Positions 24,110 to 33,496 of a stretch of 64,000 nt of DNA are shown here, in pieces (position 1 is the stretch's first letter; every line of letters starts with the position of its first letter). Source of the DNA: a virus; IMG/VR virus record IMGVR_UViG_3300046559_000446, positions 1-64,000 of that record. One strand, written 5' to 3'. The notes below the pieces were generated by a model. That model did no database searches. It worked only from the letters and a program-made list of their open reading frames with translations, and was not told the DNA's origin. The position numbers and the translations under genes are program-made.

Positions 24110-24224
24110 CTCCACACTCTCCTCCTCCCAATTTCGTACTCGCTTGTCTAACCCGTTTTCGCTCTTGCCGGCAAGCCCATTTCCCTCATATACTCCCCCG
24201 ACCCCTCTCCCGGAGGCCCACGCC

Positions 24225-25215: not shown

Positions 25216-25397
25216 AGAACGACCCTGCTCTTAAGCTGGGAATTTCCCTCTCTTCGTCCTGCGACTGGGCGCCGATGTGGTTCGGATCCTACACTGCCTG
25301 CGTCCACGCCTGGCGCTTTATCAATCCCGACTGGGAGAATCATTTGGCCGCCATTTCTTATATGCTGGCGCTTGATAAAGGCATGGTGTTCGGATGA
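25212..25397 (+). CDS. Hypothetical protein between terS and terL
   Basis: GGAG RBS, GTGA overlap. Confidence 0.5.
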   Translation: MKNDPALKLGISLSSSCDWAPMWFGSYTACVHAWRFINPDWENHLAAISYMLALDKGMVFG

Positions 25398-27022
25398 CCG
25401 CGCTCCAGAAGGTCGACCCCCAGGACGTCCTCGATCGCATCGACAAGGAATTTTGCGAGCGGTCCCTGCACGAGTTCGTCAAGCGGGCCTGGAAGGAGGT
25501 CGAGCCGGGCCAGCCGATGATCGACAACTGGCACCTTCCTTATATCTGCGAGCACCTGGAGGCGATCACCGACGGCGCTTCCGTCGATGGCAAGCCCTAC
25601 AACCGTCTCCTTATTAATATCCCTCCAGGAGGGATGAAATCTCTCCTCCTCAACGTCTTTTGGCCAGCCTGGGAGTGGGGGCCGGCGGCGCTGCCCCATA
25701 TGCGCTATCTCTGCGCGTCCCATAACATCGAATTGGTCGAGCGCGACAGCATTCGCATGCGCCGCCTGGTCACCACCCAATGGTACCAGAAGCACTGGGG
25801 CAGTCTGGTGCAACTGACTGGCGACCAGAACTCCAAGACGGTGTTCGAAAACACCCGCTCCGGATGGCGCAGGGCGGTCGCGGCGGGCGCTGACACCGGC
25901 CACCGCGCCGACCGCGTCCTGATCGACGACGCTCTCAGCGTCAAGAACGCCAACTCCGACAGCACCCGCGAGAGCGTCAACCTGTGGTTCAGGGAGTCTG
26001 TCCCGACCCGCCTCAATTCGCCGCGCAAGTCCGCGATCGTCGTCATCATGCAGCGGCTGCACGAGGCCGATCTGTCCGGGATGATCCTCGACAAGAAGCT
26101 CGGCTACGATCACATCATGATCCCGATGCGCTACGATCCGGATCGCGCCCATCCCACCATGCTCGGCTTCACCGACCCCCGCACCATCCCCGGCCAGCTT
26201 TATTTTCCCGCCCGCTTTCCCCTCGACGTGGTCGAACGCGAAGAGCGGATCATGGGGCCGTTCGCCACCGCCGGCCAGATGCAGCAGGCCCCGGTCCCGC
26301 GAGGAGGCGGCGTCATCAAGGACGCCGACTGGATCTTGTGGGACAAGCCGGAATTTCCCGCGCTCGACTTTATCGTCGCCTCGATCGACACCGCCTACGG
26401 CCTGAAGCAGGAGAACGACCCCAGCGCCATGACGGTGTGGGGGGTGTTTTCAGGCGACACCCGCAACGCCGCCACCCGCCTGGTGGATCGCTACGGCCAT
26501 CCCAAGGAAATGCCGGAAGGAGCGCCCAACTCCAGCCTCAACGCCGCCCCGCGCGTCATTTTGATGTACGCCTGGACCGAGCGCCTGTCCCTTTCCGATC
26601 TGGTGGCTAAAGTCGCCCTCCATTGCAAGAAGCTGAAGGTCGACCGGCTGCTGGTCGAGGCCAAGGCCAGCGGCATCAGCGTCGCTCAGGAAATGCGCCG
26701 GCTCTATGGCCACGAGCCTTGGGCGGTTCATTTGATCAACCCTGGCAACCAGGACAAGCTGGCGCGTCTTTACAGCGTCCAGCCGCTGTTCGCGGAGGGC
26801 ATGATTTACGCGCCAGACAAGGAATGGGCGGAAATGGTGATCAGGCAAGTGGCTTCCTTCCCCAAGGCGCTGCATGACGACCTCACCGACACCACATCCC
26901 AGGCCATCCGGCACCTCCGCGACTGCGGCCTCCTCGTCAGATCCGACGAAAGGCTGGCGGAAATGAACGAAGAGGTGGAATATGGTCGTAATCGGCCCCT
27001 TGAACCGCTCTACCCTGGTTAA
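25394..27022 (+). CDS. terL: Terminase large subunit
   Basis: RLLINIPPGGMKS Walker A, VLIDD Walker B, IMQRLHE.DL coupling motif, nuclease SIDTA...HDDLTD. Confidence 0.93.
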   Translation: MTALQKVDPQDVLDRIDKEFCERSLHEFVKRAWKEVEPGQPMIDNWHLPYICEHLEAITDGASVDGKPYNRLLINIPPGGMKSLLLNVFWPAWEWGPAALPHMRYLCASHNIELVERDSIRMRRLVTTQWYQKHWGSLVQLTGDQNSKTVFENTRSGWRRAVAAGADTGHRADRVLIDDALSVKNANSDSTRESVNLWFRESVPTRLNSPRKSAIVVIMQRLHEADLSGMILDKKLGYDHIMIPMRYDPDRAHPTMLGFTDPRTIPGQLYFPARFPLDVVEREERIMGPFATAGQMQQAPVPRGGGVIKDADWILWDKPEFPALDFIVASIDTAYGLKQENDPSAMTVWGVFSGDTRNAATRLVDRYGHPKEMPEGAPNSSLNAAPRVILMYAWTERLSLSDLVAKVALHCKKLKVDRLLVEAKASGISVAQEMRRLYGHEPWAVHLINPGNQDKLARLYSVQPLFAEGMIYAPDKEWAEMVIRQVASFPKALHDDLTDTTSQAIRHLRDCGLLVRSDERLAEMNEEVEYGRNRPLEPLYPG

Positions 27023-27038: not shown

Positions 27039-27194
27039 ATGTTTTTCCGCAATAACCCCACGTCCGTGACGGAGAAGGCTCCAAAAACAGCCGAAAAACC
27101 CGAAAAAGAGGCTGAAAAGCCCGAAAAACGTCGTGAAACCGTCCACGAAGTCGAAAAACACCCCCACCGCGACATGCATGAGAGCAAAAAATGA
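27039..27194 (+). CDS. Small Lys/Glu-rich protein (51 aa)
   Basis: GGAGG RBS; EKPEK repeats. Confidence 0.5.
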   Translation: MFFRNNPTSVTEKAPKTAEKPEKEAEKPEKRRETVHEVEKHPHRDMHESKK

Positions 27195-27898
27195 CCAACG
27201 GACACATCAAACCGTCAATTCAGGCTGCTTTGGACGAGGCCCACCCCACCGGGCCGGTCCATCACCGCCCCAGCATCGCCGGATCGCATAGAAAGCCCGG
27301 CGACGACAACCTTTTCGACCCTCAAGACCCCGAAATGCAGGGCATTCCGCTGGCCGGCGACTTTGGACACCCCCTCCAGACGCCTGAGCAGCGCCGAAAT
27401 ATGGAGGCGCTGCTGGACGACAACCCCACCGGCCCGCGTGATAACGAAGTCATAAAGGCGGCGAAAGACGCCATGATCTACGGGACAGGCTTCGTTCAGA
27501 TGCAAGGCGAGGACCGCATGCCCGGCGGCGACAAGCCAACGGAAATGGAATTGCTGCGTCGGCCTCCAGTCACCAGCGACCTCAAGCAATTCGAAAATTC
27601 CTACGGCACGGATTTTGGCACGGCCATCCTGCAAATGCGGGCCGGCTGCAAAGTCCAGCGCGAAGGATGGAACGGCAAGGATATGTGGATCGCTCTGTCG
27701 GGCGTGGAAGGCCCGCGCGAAGTCTACAGCGAAAAGCTGTGGTCAAAGCCGGCCCGCGATTACGCTCGCGCGCAGCCCGGCGGGACGGTCAAGGTGCTGC
27801 CTTGCTTCATCATGAAGACGGCGACCGGCGAAATCCTGATGGGCTGGCTGGCGAGCCAATCCGACATGCTGGCCCAGGATTGGAGGGTCGTGCCGTGA
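27191..27898 (+). CDS. DUF2829 (Tad2-like) domain protein with a long N-terminal extension
   Basis: C-terminal DFGTAILQMRAGCKVQREGWNGKDMWI...PCFIMKT.......GWLASQSDMLAQDW. Confidence 0.85.
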   Translation: MTNGHIKPSIQAALDEAHPTGPVHHRPSIAGSHRKPGDDNLFDPQDPEMQGIPLAGDFGHPLQTPEQRRNMEALLDDNPTGPRDNEVIKAAKDAMIYGTGFVQMQGEDRMPGGDKPTEMELLRRPPVTSDLKQFENSYGTDFGTAILQMRAGCKVQREGWNGKDMWIALSGVEGPREVYSEKLWSKPARDYARAQPGGTVKVLPCFIMKTATGEILMGWLASQSDMLAQDWRVVP

Positions 27899-28020
27899 CA
27901 CATTTGCGATTGGTTCGGCAACCATCCTACAAGGATGACAGCAAGAAAGAATTGAAGCGCAAGATCAGGATACTGAAGGCGGCGGCGAAGGTGCTGAAGA
28001 AGGAATTGAAGTCGCGATGA
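27895..28020 (+). CDS. Small basic protein (41 aa)
   Basis: GTGA overlap; Lys-rich helix. Confidence 0.5.
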   Translation: MTHLRLVRQPSYKDDSKKELKRKIRILKAAAKVLKKELKSR

Positions 28021-28208
28021 CCCCGTTCAAGCCCGAACCCATCAAAACGACCAAGCTATGGACCGGCGTCTGCCGCGACGGCCCGTGGAAAGGCCTGCCA
28101 TTGACGGCGGGGTCGCGTTTCGTCTGCGCCCCCGACGGCAATGAATACTGCAACGACGGCGTCGGCCACTGGAATTGGGTCGAACTGCACCACGAGGGCA
28201 AGAAATGA
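28017..28208 (+). CDS. Small hypothetical protein (63 aa)
   Basis: G.CRDGP motif; ATGA overlap. Confidence 0.6.
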   Translation: MTPFKPEPIKTTKLWTGVCRDGPWKGLPLTAGSRFVCAPDGNEYCNDGVGHWNWVELHHEGKK

Positions 28209-28483
28209 CCGACATTCCCGATAAAGTCGCCCCCATCACCGGCATGCCGATCACGATGGCGCAGACGTGCTGGTGCCCGTTCGTCAACGTCTCTCCCATA
28301 GCCGGCGCTGATCACATGACGACCAGTCGCGGCGTCAGGCTGCGCTACGGCGACACCGACGCCCAGATCACCCAGGCTTTCAATTGCATCACCACGCGCT
28401 GCATGTCGTGGATTGCCGACAGCGCCGCCCCCACTACCCACGGCACATGCCGATTGATCACCGGAGCAGGACTAAAAGCATGA
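28205..28483 (+). CDS. Cys-containing hypothetical protein (92 aa)
   Basis: WCPF...CITTRCMSW...GTC pattern. Confidence 0.65.
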   Translation: MTDIPDKVAPITGMPITMAQTCWCPFVNVSPIAGADHMTTSRGVRLRYGDTDAQITQAFNCITTRCMSWIADSAAPTTHGTCRLITGAGLKA

Positions 28484-28962
28484 GCGAAGTTTTGAACGGA
28501 ATTTGCAGAGGCGGTCCGCTGAACGACCGGGGCCTGACCCACGACAGGCCTTTCAAGGTTTTGGTGGCCTCGAATAACGATGGCCAGGCCGGCGCCTATC
28601 ACTATGCCGGCAACAACGCCTGGCTTTGGCAGGCCGAAGGAGAAGAAGACCCAATGAGCAGAGCAGCCGAAGAGCAAATTGACATGCAAATCCGTGAAAA
28701 CGGCAAGGTTGCGCCCCGGATTACGCCGGAAATCATCGACCAGCGCATCCGCCAGGTGAAATACTACAATTTTCCCGACACCACCGTCATGATCTGCGCC
28801 ATCGAACTGATGAACGGATATCATGTCGTTGGCGAATCAGCCTGCGCCTCTCCAACCAATTACGACGCCGCCATTGGCCGGCGCATCGCTTATGATGACG
28901 CCCGCCGCAAGATTTGGTCATTGGAGGGCTACGTCCTCCGCAACGTGCTGAAGGGGCTATGA
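28480..28962 (+). CDS. Phage Gp49/Sf6 gp66-family protein; possible second in-frame start at 28654
   Basis: APRITPEII...TVMICAIELMNGYHVVGESACASPTNYDAAIGRRIAYDDARRKIWSLEGY. Confidence 0.85.
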   Translation: MSEVLNGICRGGPLNDRGLTHDRPFKVLVASNNDGQAGAYHYAGNNAWLWQAEGEEDPMSRAAEEQIDMQIRENGKVAPRITPEIIDQRIRQVKYYNFPDTTVMICAIELMNGYHVVGESACASPTNYDAAIGRRIAYDDARRKIWSLEGYVLRNVLKGL

Positions 28963-29102
28963 CTGCGCTCGATATCGCCATTTCGGTCTTCATCCTGCTG
29001 CTCGTCGCCCGCCTCTCCTACAACAAGGGGCGGCGCGACGAGCGCGCCGCTCGACACGGGGATTACGAAGATGAGCTTCATGATGAAATGCACAGTCGAT
29101 AA
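28959..29102 (+). CDS. Small membrane protein (47 aa)
   Basis: N-terminal TM helix IAISVFILLLVA; ATGA overlap. Confidence 0.55.
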   Translation: MTALDIAISVFILLLVARLSYNKGRRDERAARHGDYEDELHDEMHSR

Positions 29103-29286
29103 TCATCTGATGCCCGGCGGGCGACCGTCTCACCTGTTCGACGTCCATGTCGAGGGCGGCGAACCGCTGGTCAAGGCTGAATACACCATCATTGCCGACG
29201 ACGAGGATGAAGCGGCTCGCGAGGGACTAAAGCGGTTCCAGAAGGCCTATGATCTGACGCCGCTGCCATACATTGGCGATATTTGA
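29071..29286 (+). CDS. Hypothetical protein (start uncertain)
   Basis: I.ADDEDEAAREGL..F pattern. Confidence 0.6.
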   Translation: MSFMMKCTVDNHLMPGGRPSHLFDVHVEGGEPLVKAEYTIIADDEDEAAREGLKRFQKAYDLTPLPYIGDI

Positions 29287-29330: not shown

Positions 29331-31865
29331 ATGCCTTTGGTGCCGGGCTTGCCCCTGAACATCCGCCAGACCAACGGCGGCGCGCCGCCGGCTATCTCGC
29401 CGGGCCTTTCCATCAAGCATGATGTGCATAATCCGCCCGGCGTTCCCGAAATGGACGACGCCGGCGCCGTCATCAAGATCGAGCATCCCGACGGCAGCGT
29501 CACTGTCTCCCTCGATGGCCGGTCGCTGGTCGACAAACCGGAACAAAACGTCGGCTGGTTCGCCAATTTGGCCGAGAAGATCAAGGAAGACGATCTCAGC
29601 GCGATCGCTGACGACCTGCTGCGCGGCATTGATGAGGATCTGTCGAGCCGCAACGACTGGATCGAGGAGCGCGCCCAGGGCATCAAGCTGCTGGGCTTCA
29701 AGATCGAAATTCCCAATCTTCAAAGCGCCGCCGATGGCGCTCCGGTCGACGGCATGTCAAAAGTGCGGCATCCGCTGCTGCAGGAGGCCGTGCTCCGCTT
29801 CCAGGCCAACGCCCGCTCCGAAATGCTGCCGACCGACGGGCCGATCAAGATCCGCGACGACGGCAGCAACTCCAACCTTCCTCGTGACGCACTGGCGACC
29901 GCCCTTGAAAAAGACCTCAATCACTACCTCACAGTCACCGCGACCGAATACTATCCCGACACCGACAAGATGTTCCTGCTGCTCGGATTTGGCGGGACAG
30001 CCTTCAAAAAGGTCTACAATTGTCCCTTACGGAACCGACCGGTCAGCGAATCCGTCGATGCTAATGACCTCATCGTCAACGACGCTGCGACTGATCTTGC
30101 GAACGCCAAGCGTGTTACCCATCGTTCCATGATGCGGCCTTCGACGGTCAAGCGCATGCAGATTATTGGCGCTTACCGCGACGTCGATCTCGACACGCCC
30201 AAGCCGCAGAGCCTCGACGCGGCCCAGGAAGCAGCCAAAAACCAGCAAGGGATCCAGGCCACCACCACGAGGCCCGACGACCGTGACCGCGAGATCTACG
30301 AGTGCTATTGCGAACTCGACCTCAAAGGCTATGAGCACAAATACAAGGGCAAGATCACCGGCCTCGAAATCCCCTACCGGGTCACCATCGATCTCTCCAG
30401 CCGCAAAATCCTTTCAATCGTCCGCAACTACGATGAAGACACGAAGGAGCTTCCTGAAGCTCGCGAAACCTTCGTCAAATATATTTTCGTGCCAGGATTG
30501 GGATTCTACGACATTGGCCTGCTCCATATATTGGGGAACACTACCAACGCTGTTACTGCTGCTTGGCGTGAGCTTCTGGATGCTGGAATGTTTAATAACT
30601 TTCCCGGCTTTCTCATGGCTGACACGGGCGCGCGTCAGAACACCAACATCTTCCGCGTCCCGCCGGGCGGCGGCGTTCTCGTCAAGACGGGCGGTCTTCC
30701 CATCAGTCAGGCGATTATGCCGCTTCCTTACCAGCCGCCGTCTCAAGCTTTGATGGCGCTGGTGCAAGACATGGCGCAGACCGGCCAGCGCAGCGGCGGC
30801 ACCGCCGAACTGCCCACCGGCGAAGGCAAGGCTGACATTCCCGTCGGCACCATCCTGGCGATGATCGAGCAGGCCCAGAAGGTGCTCAACAACGTCCACA
30901 AGCGCATGCACTCGGCTCAGTCGCAAGAATTTCGCCTGCTGATACGCTGCTTCAAGGAAAACCCCAAGGCGTTCTGGCAGCGCAACAAGAAGCCGTCCGC
31001 GCCATGGGACGAGCAGAATTTCCGCGCCGCGCTCGATCTGGCCGATCTGACCCCGCAGGCCGATCCGAACACCGCCAGCCATGGCCAGCGCGTGATGAAG
31101 ATCATGGCGCTCAAGCAGTTGCAGCAGCAGAACCCCACCATGTACGACCCGATCGCGATCGACACGGCGGCGCTGCAGGCGCTGGGCTGGAACAATCCGC
31201 AGCAATTCATGGCGCCGCCGGCGGCCCAGGCTGCGCCTCCTCCGCAAATCGTCCAGCAGCAGGCCGAGACGGCGGCCAAGACCCTCACCGCGCAGGCGGC
31301 GATGGTCACCGCCCAGGCGAAAGCCAAGGAATCTGGCGCGCGCGCCATGAACCTGATGGCGGAAGCCCAGACCATGGGCATGGACGAAACCGGCCAGGTC
31401 CAGCAGGATACGCCGGTCGATCAGCACCGCGCCGAATCGGAGCGCATCAAGGCCAACGCGCATGCGCAGCAGGCCGACACCCACCAGTCCGTCATGGGGG
31501 CCAAGGCCCAGGCTGACCTGCTGAACGCCCAGACCCGCCAGCAGGAAGTTCAGTTGAAACTGGGCGAAATGTCGATGAAGGACGCCCACCACGACGACGA
31601 GCAGCGCCTCAAGACGAGGGCGGAAACGATCGACATGGCCAAGCAGGTCATGGACAGCCACGCCGAGAACGCGCGCACCCAGGAGGAAATGCACCACGAT
31701 CACGCCCTGATGGGCCGCGAGCAGGCGCATGAGCACGAGATTGTCGAAAAGACCCACGCGCACGAGAAGGAACTGGAGGGCGTGAAGAAGACGGCGGCGA
31801 TCGCGGTCGCCAAGGCCAAACCCCGTCCGAAGCCAGCCGCCAAGCCGAAGGGTAAGAGCAAATGA
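29331..31865 (+). CDS. Portal protein (P22-like, long C-terminal coiled-coil barrel)
   Basis: 844 aa after terL; HPLLQEAVLRFQA, GTAFKKVY, RVTH, FVKY.F.PG.GFY..G, LLDAG, KRMH. Confidence 0.85.
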   Translation: MPLVPGLPLNIRQTNGGAPPAISPGLSIKHDVHNPPGVPEMDDAGAVIKIEHPDGSVTVSLDGRSLVDKPEQNVGWFANLAEKIKEDDLSAIADDLLRGIDEDLSSRNDWIEERAQGIKLLGFKIEIPNLQSAADGAPVDGMSKVRHPLLQEAVLRFQANARSEMLPTDGPIKIRDDGSNSNLPRDALATALEKDLNHYLTVTATEYYPDTDKMFLLLGFGGTAFKKVYNCPLRNRPVSESVDANDLIVNDAATDLANAKRVTHRSMMRPSTVKRMQIIGAYRDVDLDTPKPQSLDAAQEAAKNQQGIQATTTRPDDRDREIYECYCELDLKGYEHKYKGKITGLEIPYRVTIDLSSRKILSIVRNYDEDTKELPEARETFVKYIFVPGLGFYDIGLLHILGNTTNAVTAAWRELLDAGMFNNFPGFLMADTGARQNTNIFRVPPGGGVLVKTGGLPISQAIMPLPYQPPSQALMALVQDMAQTGQRSGGTAELPTGEGKADIPVGTILAMIEQAQKVLNNVHKRMHSAQSQEFRLLIRCFKENPKAFWQRNKKPSAPWDEQNFRAALDLADLTPQADPNTASHGQRVMKIMALKQLQQQNPTMYDPIAIDTAALQALGWNNPQQFMAPPAAQAAPPPQIVQQQAETAAKTLTAQAAMVTAQAKAKESGARAMNLMAEAQTMGMDETGQVQQDTPVDQHRAESERIKANAHAQQADTHQSVMGAKAQADLLNAQTRQQEVQLKLGEMSMKDAHHDDEQRLKTRAETIDMAKQVMDSHAENARTQEEMHHDHALMGREQAHEHEIVEKTHAHEKELEGVKKTAAIAVAKAKPRPKPAAKPKGKSK

Positions 31866-33496
31866 ACAAGCCCATCCGCGCTGCGCTCCTGACGGCCAAG
31901 GCTCTTTATGACAAGCTGCCTCATGTCGTCGGCGGCGGCGCGCCGATGGCCAAAGGCGGCGTCGTCAAGGACATTCCCCAGATCATCATGCCTGGCGATC
32001 ACCCGGCCCGCATCGACACCCGGCTGGCGACGGGCGCCAAGCCGCTCGATCTGGGGCCAGGGCCGCGCACCGTCAACATGGCGGCGCTGCGCGCGACGCC
32101 GGCGCTGTTCGACAAGAACGTCGACATCCTGCGGCATTATCCGAATGTTTCGAAAGACGCGAGCAAGCTGTCGAACCAGGATCTGTCCGAGCATTTCATC
32201 AAGCACGTCAAGGACAACCTGCTGTGGCTACACGACCAGGTGCCCGACGAAACTCGCCAGCGATCCAAGCTGTGGTACGACGGCGCCAACAAGCTGGCCA
32301 AGGAGTGGGCCAAGAAATACGGCGTTTCGGAGGCGTCAGCCGCCGGCGCGCTGGCCGCGCTGTCGCCGCAGAAAGACTGGTTTCAGAACGTGTCGCTGGC
32401 CGAGCGCGTGTTGCATGCGATGAAGGGGCGCGGCAATAACGCCTACCACGGCGAAACCTTCTCGCCTGAGATGGAGGGCACTTATCGCGGCCTGGACAAG
32501 CTGGCCACCGAGAAGAACGAGCCAATCTTCCAGGCGATTAGAGGCAAGTCGCTGGGCGAAATTGATCAAATGGGTCACATCCCTCGCGACGAGCGCGCGG
32601 TCATGAAGGCGCTGTGGATCCGGATGCACGATCAGACCCATGGCGATCCCGGCTACAAGATCGCCACGCCTGAAGGCCACTTTGGCGAAATCGCCCGCAA
32701 CGCCGACGGCTCGCCATCGCGGGCGGGCTGGGGTTCGCTGGGCGAGATCGGCAAGGCGGTGCAGGCGATCGAGAGCAACGGCGAGCCGACCTTCATGAAC
32801 CGTCTGATGGGCGAGCGCCACAAGGTCCGCAATTTCTACAACAATATTCTCGACCCCAACTCGCAGCATGGCGACGTCACCATCGACACCCATGCGGTCG
32901 CCGCCGGCCTACTGCGCGCGCTGTCGGGCAATTCGCTTGAGGTGGCGCACAATTTCAGCAACTACGCCGGCAAGGGCGTTCCGGGCGCTGGCGGCTCCAA
33001 CGCCACCGGCGTGAACGGAACCTATCCGCTCTATGCCGACGCCTATCGCCAAGCCGCCAAAGAGCGCGGTATACTGCCTCGCGAAATGCAATCGATTACG
33101 TGGGAGGCGATCAGGGGATTGTTTCCCGACACCTTCAAAACTGATAAAAACAACGCCCATATCGACAGCATCTGGAACGACTACAAGCACGGAAGAAAAG
33201 GAATCGACGATGTCCGCAAAGAAATCCACGACTTCGCAGGGGGGATCCGGCCACCGGAGTGGCACGACACCTCTGGAGCGCCTGATGCACCGGTTCGGGG
33301 TGCCAGTGGACCGGGACTCGTACCTGGCCCTGGATCACGCGGGCCAGCCCCCCAAGGAATTATCGGCGGAACAGGAAATGGACCTCCCGGAGCACTTGCG
33401 CCGCAAGCACCCCGGCAGTCGGGGCTGATCTTGCCGCCCGGATACGCCTGTGGCGGCGCAGTCGCCAAAGCATTGGCCGCGACACGGTCGAATTAA
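31862..33496 (+). CDS. DUF7178-type protein with HhH-GPD/DNA-glycosylase-like motifs
   Basis: WYDGA...AAGALAALSPQKDW..N, HKVRNFYNNI, VTIDTHA, YA.AY..AA...G..PREMQSITW. Confidence 0.65.
   Translation: MNKPIRAALLTAKALYDKLPHVVGGGAPMAKGGVVKDIPQIIMPGDHPARIDTRLATGAKPLDLGPGPRTVNMAALRATPALFDKNVDILRHYPNVSKDASKLSNQDLSEHFIKHVKDNLLWLHDQVPDETRQRSKLWYDGANKLAKEWAKKYGVSEASAAGALAALSPQKDWFQNVSLAERVLHAMKGRGNNAYHGETFSPEMEGTYRGLDKLATEKNEPIFQAIRGKSLGEIDQMGHIPRDERAVMKALWIRMHDQTHGDPGYKIATPEGHFGEIARNADGSPSRAGWGSLGEIGKAVQAIESNGEPTFMNRLMGERHKVRNFYNNILDPNSQHGDVTIDTHAVAAGLLRALSGNSLEVAHNFSNYAGKGVPGAGGSNATGVNGTYPLYADAYRQAAKERGILPREMQSITWEAIRGLFPDTFKTDKNNAHIDSIWNDYKHGRKGIDDVRKEIHDFAGGIRPPEWHDTSGAPDAPVRGASGPGLVPGPGSRGPAPQGIIGGTGNGPPGALAPQAPRQSGLILPPGYACGGAVAKALAATRSN

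Follow-up and report, generated by a model that had tools for sequence, protein, structure and literature searches.

The terminase-to-portal region

The window, meaning the whole stretch of 64,000 nucleotides of viral DNA that was analysed, contains at 28480..28962 on the + strand a gene for a 160-aa protein (P0001) in which an N-terminal mini-domain is fused to an Acb4 domain. The reading frame, which runs from an ATG at 28480 to a TGA at 28960-28962, has full-length homologues that are 61-94% identical in translation. The gene belongs to a small island within the structural region of the genome. The left border is formed by the large terminase gene (25394..27022, +), assigned by phrog_38 (E 5.7e-77) and by tblastn to annotated terminases, with an Sf6-type small terminase directly upstream. 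The right border is formed by the gene for an SU10-type portal (29331..31865, +; PF23899 SU10_portal, E 1e-19). The portal stop is overlapped by a 544-aa gene (31862-33496) of the DUF7178 family (PF23802, E 2.8e-29); in the related contig L022, too, a member of this family comes after the portal.

The island consists, in order, of a Tad2-like gene, a 41-aa ORF, a free-standing copy of the mini-domain, a Cys-rich gene, the fusion, a 47-aa membrane-type ORF and a 71-aa ORF, all on the + strand. The Tad2-like protein (P0002, 27191..27898) has 235 aa and carries its Tad2 domain in residues 141-234 (PF11195, E 1.7e-20, 73.7 bits against a cut-off of 25). Among solved Tad2 proteins it matches SptTad2 (8WJD, E 6.7e-13) and SPO1 Tad2 (8SME, E 5e-7), with 9EIB also in that range. 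Its gene ends 582 bp before 28480, in line with the first-pass annotation, which had placed a sponge 600 bp or less from a Tad2-like gene and had envisaged two sponge families side by side between terL and portal; both family assignments are now confirmed.

The 41-aa ORF (27895..28020), basic and probably helical as read from its sequence, starts with a GTG that overlaps the Tad2 stop and has a homologue in the related contigs L002 and L004. It is followed by the free-standing mini-domain (P0003, 63 aa, 28017..28208) and by a Cys-rich protein of 92 aa (P0004, 28205..28483) with the pattern WCPF...NCI.TRCMSW...HGTC, for which no Pfam or PHROG family was found. The Cys-rich gene is a variable member of the island, present in L002, L004, L008, L021 and L022 and absent from L001. 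Downstream of the fusion, the 47-aa protein (28959..29102), whose start codon overlaps the stop of the fusion gene, has a single hydrophobic helix and is conserved in L001, L002 and the second genome copy of the assembly (copy B, described below). The last member is a small acidic protein of 71 aa (29071..29286) with the motif YTIIADDEDEAAREG and no family in Pfam or PHROG. In contrast to the rest of the island it is constant: a protein of 62-94 aa with this motif stands directly before the portal in every examined relative that reaches the portal, including L019, L020 and L022.

Four-base overlaps of start and stop codons recur across 27191-29102, as GTGA at 27895 and as ATGA at 28017, 28205, 28480 and 28959, and join the small genes into a translationally coupled series. 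The start ATG of P0001 shares such an ATGA with the stop of the upstream gene, and its own stop overlaps the next ATG. A simple scan of the island found no promoter-like or terminator-like site inside it on the + strand, the nearest + strand candidates lying at 24165 and 29273, which argues that the island is probably transcribed together with terL and the portal gene.

The window represents positions 1-64000 of a 138,254-bp contig in which two related 69-kb phage genomes, of about 85% nucleotide identity, lie head to tail. An identical 99 nt occurs at the contig start, at the junction (69299-69397) and at the contig end; the two-genome contig is most likely an assembly path at k=99 through two strain variants and not a real dimer. 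Copy B contains, in this order, TerL, an ORF of 67 aa, a tandem pair of Tad2-like genes, a free mini-domain, a fusion (P0016), a 47-aa ORF, a 94-aa ORF homologous to the window's 71-aa protein, and the portal; the 41-aa ORF and the Cys-rich gene are absent. The copy B fusion (L018 4297-4755) carries PF13876 and is 67% identical to P0001, and its Acb4 domain misses ten residues of the first helix (IDMQIRENGK). A frameshifted Tad2 gene in copy B was considered and ruled out, the two tandem genes (L018 3190-4112; 195 and 112 aa) being intact. The N-terminal part of the window's P0002 is 35% identical to the first of these and its Tad2 domain 73% identical to the second, as if P0002 were a deletion product joining two Tad2 paralogues.

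Relatives in IMG/VR, which include 67-kb contigs, extend this picture of variation. They have one or two Tad2 genes and a fusion with one or two mini-domains, and some lack the free mini-domain or the Cys-rich gene. As the content changes among close relatives within a structural block that is otherwise collinear, we regard the region as an accessory island.

The Acb4 domain and its predicted ligand pocket

Residues 59-160 of P0001 (28654..28962, +) constitute the Acb4 domain, which was recognized by Pfam, by a profile match to PDB entry 9E4W, by modelling and by structural matches. The first-pass annotation had read a Phage_gp49_66 signature at 28480-28962, and Pfam hmmscan confirms it: PF13876 matches residues 81-155 at E 2.4e-25 (89.3 bits, cut-off 27) and spans positions 1-80 of the 82 in the profile. 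In PHROG, residues 59-156 correspond to phrog_322 (E 1.4e-37). The annotation had also placed Acb4 in this family, and Chang et al. (bioRxiv 10.1101/2024.12.30.630793; later Mol Cell 2025) indeed define PF13876 as the Acb4 family.

In that work, gp1.3 of phage SPO1 was identified as Acb4, a tetrameric 3'3'-cGAMP sponge (PDB 9E4W) assigned to PF13876. Binding of 3'3'-cGAMP was found for SPO1 Acb4 and for 8 of 8 further homologues, hence for all nine members of the family that were tested. Homologues from phages of Gram-negative hosts bound 3'3'-cAA too, 3'3'-cGG was bound by none, and AlphaFold3 models of eight homologues were tetramers (bioRxiv 10.1101/2024.12.30.630793).

The relation of P0001 to the solved structure is remote in sequence. 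A single-sequence search of PDB sequences reached 9E4W at E 2 only; a profile built from 36 relatives found 9e4w_A at E 9.3e-6, as its sole significant match. In the AlphaFold2 model of P0001, the Acb4 part has a mean pLDDT of 79-92 for each 10-residue block from residue 61 on. Its elements are helices at residues 61-73 and 83-89, strands at 90-97, 103-110 and 115-121, and a helix at 130-159, and the fold of the Acb4 protomer, with N-terminal helices, three antiparallel strands and long C-terminal helices, is present in the model.

When the model of residues 59-156 was compared with known structures by Foldseek, ranks 1-10 were all occupied by chains of 9E4W, with a probability of 1.00, a target-normalised TM of 0.67-0.74 and, for the best chains, an rmsd of 1.5-1.7 Å over 68-71 columns. 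VIA-align likewise placed 9e4w_N at rank 1, with Z 10.3 and an rmsd of 2.5 Å over 77 residues. Structural alignment to Acb4 had been named beforehand as the point on which the assignment could fail; because 9E4W ranks top in both searches, a lack of likeness to Acb4 can no longer be urged against it. After 9E4W, VIA listed dsRBD, RNase III/Dicer and ribosome-hibernation folds at Z 6-8, and the same neighbours (dsRBD and hibernation folds) are given for Acb4 itself by Chang et al. (bioRxiv 10.1101/2024.12.30.630793). By sequence and by fold, P0001 is a true member of the Acb4 sponge family.

Ligand contacts of SPO1 Acb4 were transferred to P0001 through the profile alignment. The chain numbering of the HMMER alignment is one off from that of Chang et al., an offset that is consistent across all listed residues, and the contacts K81 and L89 lie beyond the aligned stretch. 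Kept or conservatively replaced are F48 (Y114 in P0001), F62 (Y128), I66 (I132), V56 (C122) and the backbone contact N63 (D129). Altered are the guanine-reading residues K36 and E49, which become T102 and H115, and the backbone contacts Y57 and T70, which become A123 and I136. Judged by this alignment, the putative pocket keeps the stacking and hydrophobic frame and not the guanine-reading pair. As K36, E49 and two backbone contacts are replaced, the specificity of P0001 may differ from that of SPO1 Acb4; the changes would suit a base preference that has loosened or moved, of the kind published for the Gram-negative homologues, and sequence alone cannot give the ligand.

These considerations lead to the first of three alternatives, in which P0001, an Acb4-fold sponge, no longer prefers cGAMP and has turned to another immune signal, for example cUA, c-di-AMP only, a cyclic trinucleotide or an ADPR-derived Thoeris signal. 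If so, 'anti-cGAMP' would be the wrong label for it. The replaced guanine contacts and the published broadening of Gram-negative-phage homologues to 3'3'-cAA (bioRxiv 10.1101/2024.12.30.630793) are what such a shift would look like, and homologues of Tad1, Tad2 and Acb2 have reportedly moved to Pycsar or Thoeris signals (review PMC13728456). All eight diverse homologues tested nevertheless still bind 3'3'-cGAMP, and the motif GES.C.SP.N[FY]D..IG of P0001, which marks the main proteobacterial branch of Acb4, is common to hundreds of family members; 'GESACASP' occurs 361 times in the published Table S3. The clade of P0001 itself does not appear among the 1,331 Acb4 sequences of the published list, in which 'IELMNGY' and 'NGYHV' gave 0 matches. 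We consider a full change of specificity unlikely, and the Acb4-type reading of this domain is retained below.

The mini-domain and the exchange of its partners

The heading of the first-pass annotation was silent on residues 1-58 of P0001 (28480..28653, +) as a separate domain. Alignment with the free ORF and with homologues defines them by the pattern G-x-C-x-x-G-P...Y...W-x-W, with G, C, G, P, A, Y, W and W invariant in 12 copies from six loci. The free ORF at 28017-28208, delineated by alignments A3 and A4 and by an AlphaFold model (mean pLDDT 82.5, five short strands), is paralogous to residues 1-58. A profile made from free-standing proteins only, with all fused copies excluded, finds residues 3-56 of P0001 at E 1e-9.

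The fusion is retained in at least 12 protein clusters, at 61-94% identity, and three of these have a tandem pair of mini-domains. Ka/Ks is 0.11-0.54 for codons 1-58 versus 0.10-0.25 for the Acb4 part, and both domains are thus under purifying selection (Ka/Ks <0.55). Given these values, the coupled start at 28480 and the retention of the fusion, codons 1-58 are taken to be translated. The internal ATG at 28654 as the sole start, which would leave the 58 codons untranslated, was ruled out by the ATGA coupling, the purifying selection and the conservation of the fusion.

Searches of known families and structures returned little for this domain. Residues 1-58 have no match in Pfam, PHROG or PDB sequences, the mini-domain profile found nothing among PDB sequences, and among PHROGs the family as a whole is represented by phrog_12090 only, for 2 of 43 members. 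With the model as query, Foldseek gave no PDB match at E 0.001 or better and VIA a best Z of 2.1 against 48,161 chains; by PDB sequence, Foldseek and VIA searches together, no structure solved up to April 2026 matches. BFVD contained weak matches only (E 0.03 or worse), to uncharacterised small proteins from Mycobacterium, Microbacterium, Arthrobacter and Ralstonia phages, and the ESM Atlas contained no usable match. No match to P0003 or P0053 was found by tblastn in GenBank phages, and hardly anything was gained from a word-indexed search for homologues of similar or greater length. Out of 1.84 billion representative proteins, a profile search recovered 55 at E 0.001 or better, most of which are free proteins of 50-78 aa. 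Prediction of a two-copy complex (P0003 residues 11-63 with alignment A4) scored 0.02 against a mark of 0.42, a result obtained without controls and uninformative either way about oligomerisation. The N-terminal domain of P0001 is acidic (pI 4.7), in a family whose pI ranges from 4.5 to 9.7 and whose net charge is widely variable.

The junction between the two domains carries what may be a trace of their history. The Acb4 part opens with the in-frame ATG at 28654, and GAAGGAG stands upstream of it at 28636-28642. Each of the 6 distinct homologous junctions has ATG or GTG as the opening codon of the Acb4 part, with GAAGGAG or GAAGGAAGAG-type purine runs about 8-14 nt before it. It is as if the start site of a formerly independent acb4 gene had been kept at the junction, a site that could yield a free Acb4 of 102 aa besides the 160-aa fusion. 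In the comparison of the window with L001 (983-1465), Ks is 0.14 in the mini-domain and 0.61 in the Acb4 part, a difference that suggests a recombination break at the junction.

The fusion partners of the mini-domain, counted as PF13876, PF24729 and PF11195, are exchanged among related phages. Two mini-domain copies in P0041, and one in P0048, precede an Acb2/Tad1 hairpin domain (PF24729; E 3.9e-14 and 6.9e-14, respectively). In P0065, the mini-domain stands ahead of a Tad2-like domain (PF11195, E 9.3e-13), and in P0043 ahead of a C terminus without an assigned family. Contigs bearing the Acb2-like and Tad2-like fusions have the same genome plan as the window, from terS and terL to the SU10 portal; in L022, for example, the order is Sf6-type TerS, TerL (542 aa), Tad2-like gene, Cys-rich gene, free mini-domain, fusion, 65-aa ORF and SU10 portal. 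In one slot of one phage lineage, therefore, the mini-domain is followed by an Acb4, an Acb2-like or a Tad2-like domain. Because the terL-portal slot fuses the same mini-domain to these other sponges, the mini-domain is itself a candidate anti-defence module.

Nine loci were located with the narrower alignment A5. In a second lineage, defined by a TerL of the phrog_2 type, the stretch between terL and the probable portal gene likewise contains a free mini-domain gene, and an Acb2-like gene is found two genes away from it in 2 of 4 loci. Members of this lineage (L025 2373-6915, L027, L029 and L031) encode TerL proteins with 591-598 aa and probable portals with 572-589 aa. Between the two there is a conserved Zn-ribbon-like protein of about 136-157 aa (MPIVRTY.C.DC.H), the free mini-domain and, in some, the Acb2-like gene. 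At five of the nine loci, those from other phage lineages (L029, L030, L031, L036 and L037), local profiles of Acb4, Tad2 and Acb2 detected no sponge gene within 4 kb, which is weak evidence of absence because those profiles are narrow. Within the two lineages the association of mini-domain and sponge is strong, and it takes the form either of one polypeptide or of neighbouring genes.

Proposed role and relation to known sponges

We propose, with a probability of about 0.8, that P0001 is a two-domain counter-defence protein in which an Acb4-type anti-CBASS cyclic-dinucleotide sponge, encoded near an anti-Thoeris-type Tad2, carries an extra domain. By homology, residues 59-160 would assemble into a tetramer with pockets between the subunits, and sequestration of CBASS cyclic dinucleotides in these pockets would keep the CBASS effector from being switched on. 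3'3'-cGAMP would be a likely ligand, joined perhaps by 3'3'-c-di-AMP given a probably Gram-negative host. The mini-domain, travelling as it does with sponge domains, would most likely supply a second counter-defence activity or aid the sponge. Two further observations count against this reading. The gene lies in a late-looking structural operon and would presumably be expressed late, while SPO1 Acb4 is active early, and the acidity of the N-terminal domain (pI 4.7) is unlike typical nucleotide pockets.

A more far-reaching interpretation of the mini-domain is that it is an autonomous and previously undescribed counter-defence module, either a new sponge or an inhibitor of a sensor or effector, which is combined with Acb4, Acb2-like or Tad2-like domains to widen the range of defences blocked. 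The start codon kept at the junction, with its Shine-Dalgarno-like stretch, may then allow one gene to yield both the fusion and a free Acb4. The mini-domain is short, mostly phage-encoded and fused to known sponges, traits that Tal et al. (bioRxiv 10.1101/2025.07.12.664507) ascribe to sponges, along with a homo-oligomeric state and a positively charged pocket where subunits meet. We put this forward tentatively, as a serious possibility that falls short of being the expected outcome.

The position of the gene could also be taken to mean that P0001 is a virion or assembly accessory, acting in packaging or packed into the capsid, with the mini-domain as its targeting or assembly part. It does lie inside the terS-terL-portal block, with no promoter-like or terminator-like site on the + strand within the island, and the free mini-domain of the second lineage, with its phrog_2 TerL, is likewise found between terL and portal. 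This argument from location loses force because the gene content of the island varies among close relatives, unlike that of core morphogenesis genes, and because the domains swapped in at the C terminus belong to three established sponge families. In isolated phages, moreover, Acb4 homologues occur at many genome positions, as far as positions alone were compared. A structural role consequently appears quite improbable. Least probable of all, and by our estimate hardly credible, is a dsRBD-like binder of RNA or ribosomes acting on host translation: its appeal lies in the dsRBD, RNase III/Dicer and hibernation-factor neighbours that Acb4 itself also has, but Z falls from 10.3 to 6-8 after Acb4, the sequence belongs to PF13876 and not to dsRBD families, and every tested PF13876 member binds cyclic dinucleotides.

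A counter-defence protein built on an Acb4-type sponge thus remains the preferred reading, and SPO1 Acb4 (gp1.3, 9E4W) its closest characterized counterpart. The two share their Pfam family and a fold of helix, three-stranded sheet and long C-terminal helix, the aromatic and hydrophobic residues that contact the ligand in SPO1 Acb4 are kept or conservatively replaced in the alignment, and both are small proteins encoded amid small accessory genes. They are only about 16-19% identical, however, and K36 and E49 are replaced in P0001. SPO1 Acb4 lacks the 58-residue N-terminal domain and is encoded in an early host-takeover region, in contrast to the terL-portal block of the window, and its host is Bacillus, whereas that of the phage studied here is probably an alphaproteobacterium. 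Closer in sequence are the stand-alone Acb4 proteins of proteobacterial phages (for example Rhizobium phage RHph_N65, Ralstonia YO phages and Vibrio phage PVA1), with 47-53% identity to residues 59-160 and the common motif GES.C.SP.NFD..IG...A..KIW.LEGY. These proteins have about 100 aa and no N-terminal domain, and of 589 GenBank phage records that match P0001, not one reaches 80% coverage of the query. The hairpin sponges of the Acb2/Tad1 type (PF24729; 8H2J, 9PTQ), also anti-CBASS, occupy the same slot behind the same mini-domain in the related phages L020-L024. Their fold is unrelated to that of Acb4, their assembly is hexameric, and none is encoded in this window.

Because pairings and fusions of these sponges have been published, a plain Acb4 beside Tad2 adds to a known type of arrangement. 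The assignment contributes one more member of the Acb4 family, from an uncultured and probably alphaproteobacterial phage group, and another phage that pairs anti-Thoeris and anti-CBASS sponges. Finding new sponges through their fusion partners is likewise an established approach, and it led to Sequestin (bioRxiv 10.1101/2025.07.12.664507). What is new is the mini-domain, which is fused to three unrelated sponge families at one slot and stands free beside Acb2-like genes elsewhere. It is absent from the families listed by Tal et al. and in the review PMC13728456, namely Tad1, Tad2, Acb2, Acb4, Sequestin, Lockin and TadIV-1. The fusion survey of Tal et al. was restricted to Pfam families and could not have seen it, as the mini-domain has no Pfam entry. 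As a short and easily cloned protein, it is a convenient candidate to try against panels of signalling defence systems.

The nearest published parallels are the Acb4-Tad2 fusion of Pasteurella phage Pm86 and the Sequestin (PF21825)-Acb4 fusion of Pseudomonas phage YH6 (Tal et al., bioRxiv 10.1101/2025.07.12.664507). As in P0001, Acb4 is joined there to a second small module in one polypeptide, Tad2 and Acb4 functions come together in one phage, and a partner domain recurs with several sponge families. The partner in P0001 is neither Tad2, which in this window is a separate gene, unlike in Pm86, nor the helical PF21825, but an all-beta domain. With this domain held constant ahead of Acb4, Acb2-like or Tad2-like partners, the locus amounts to a natural exchange of sponge cassettes.
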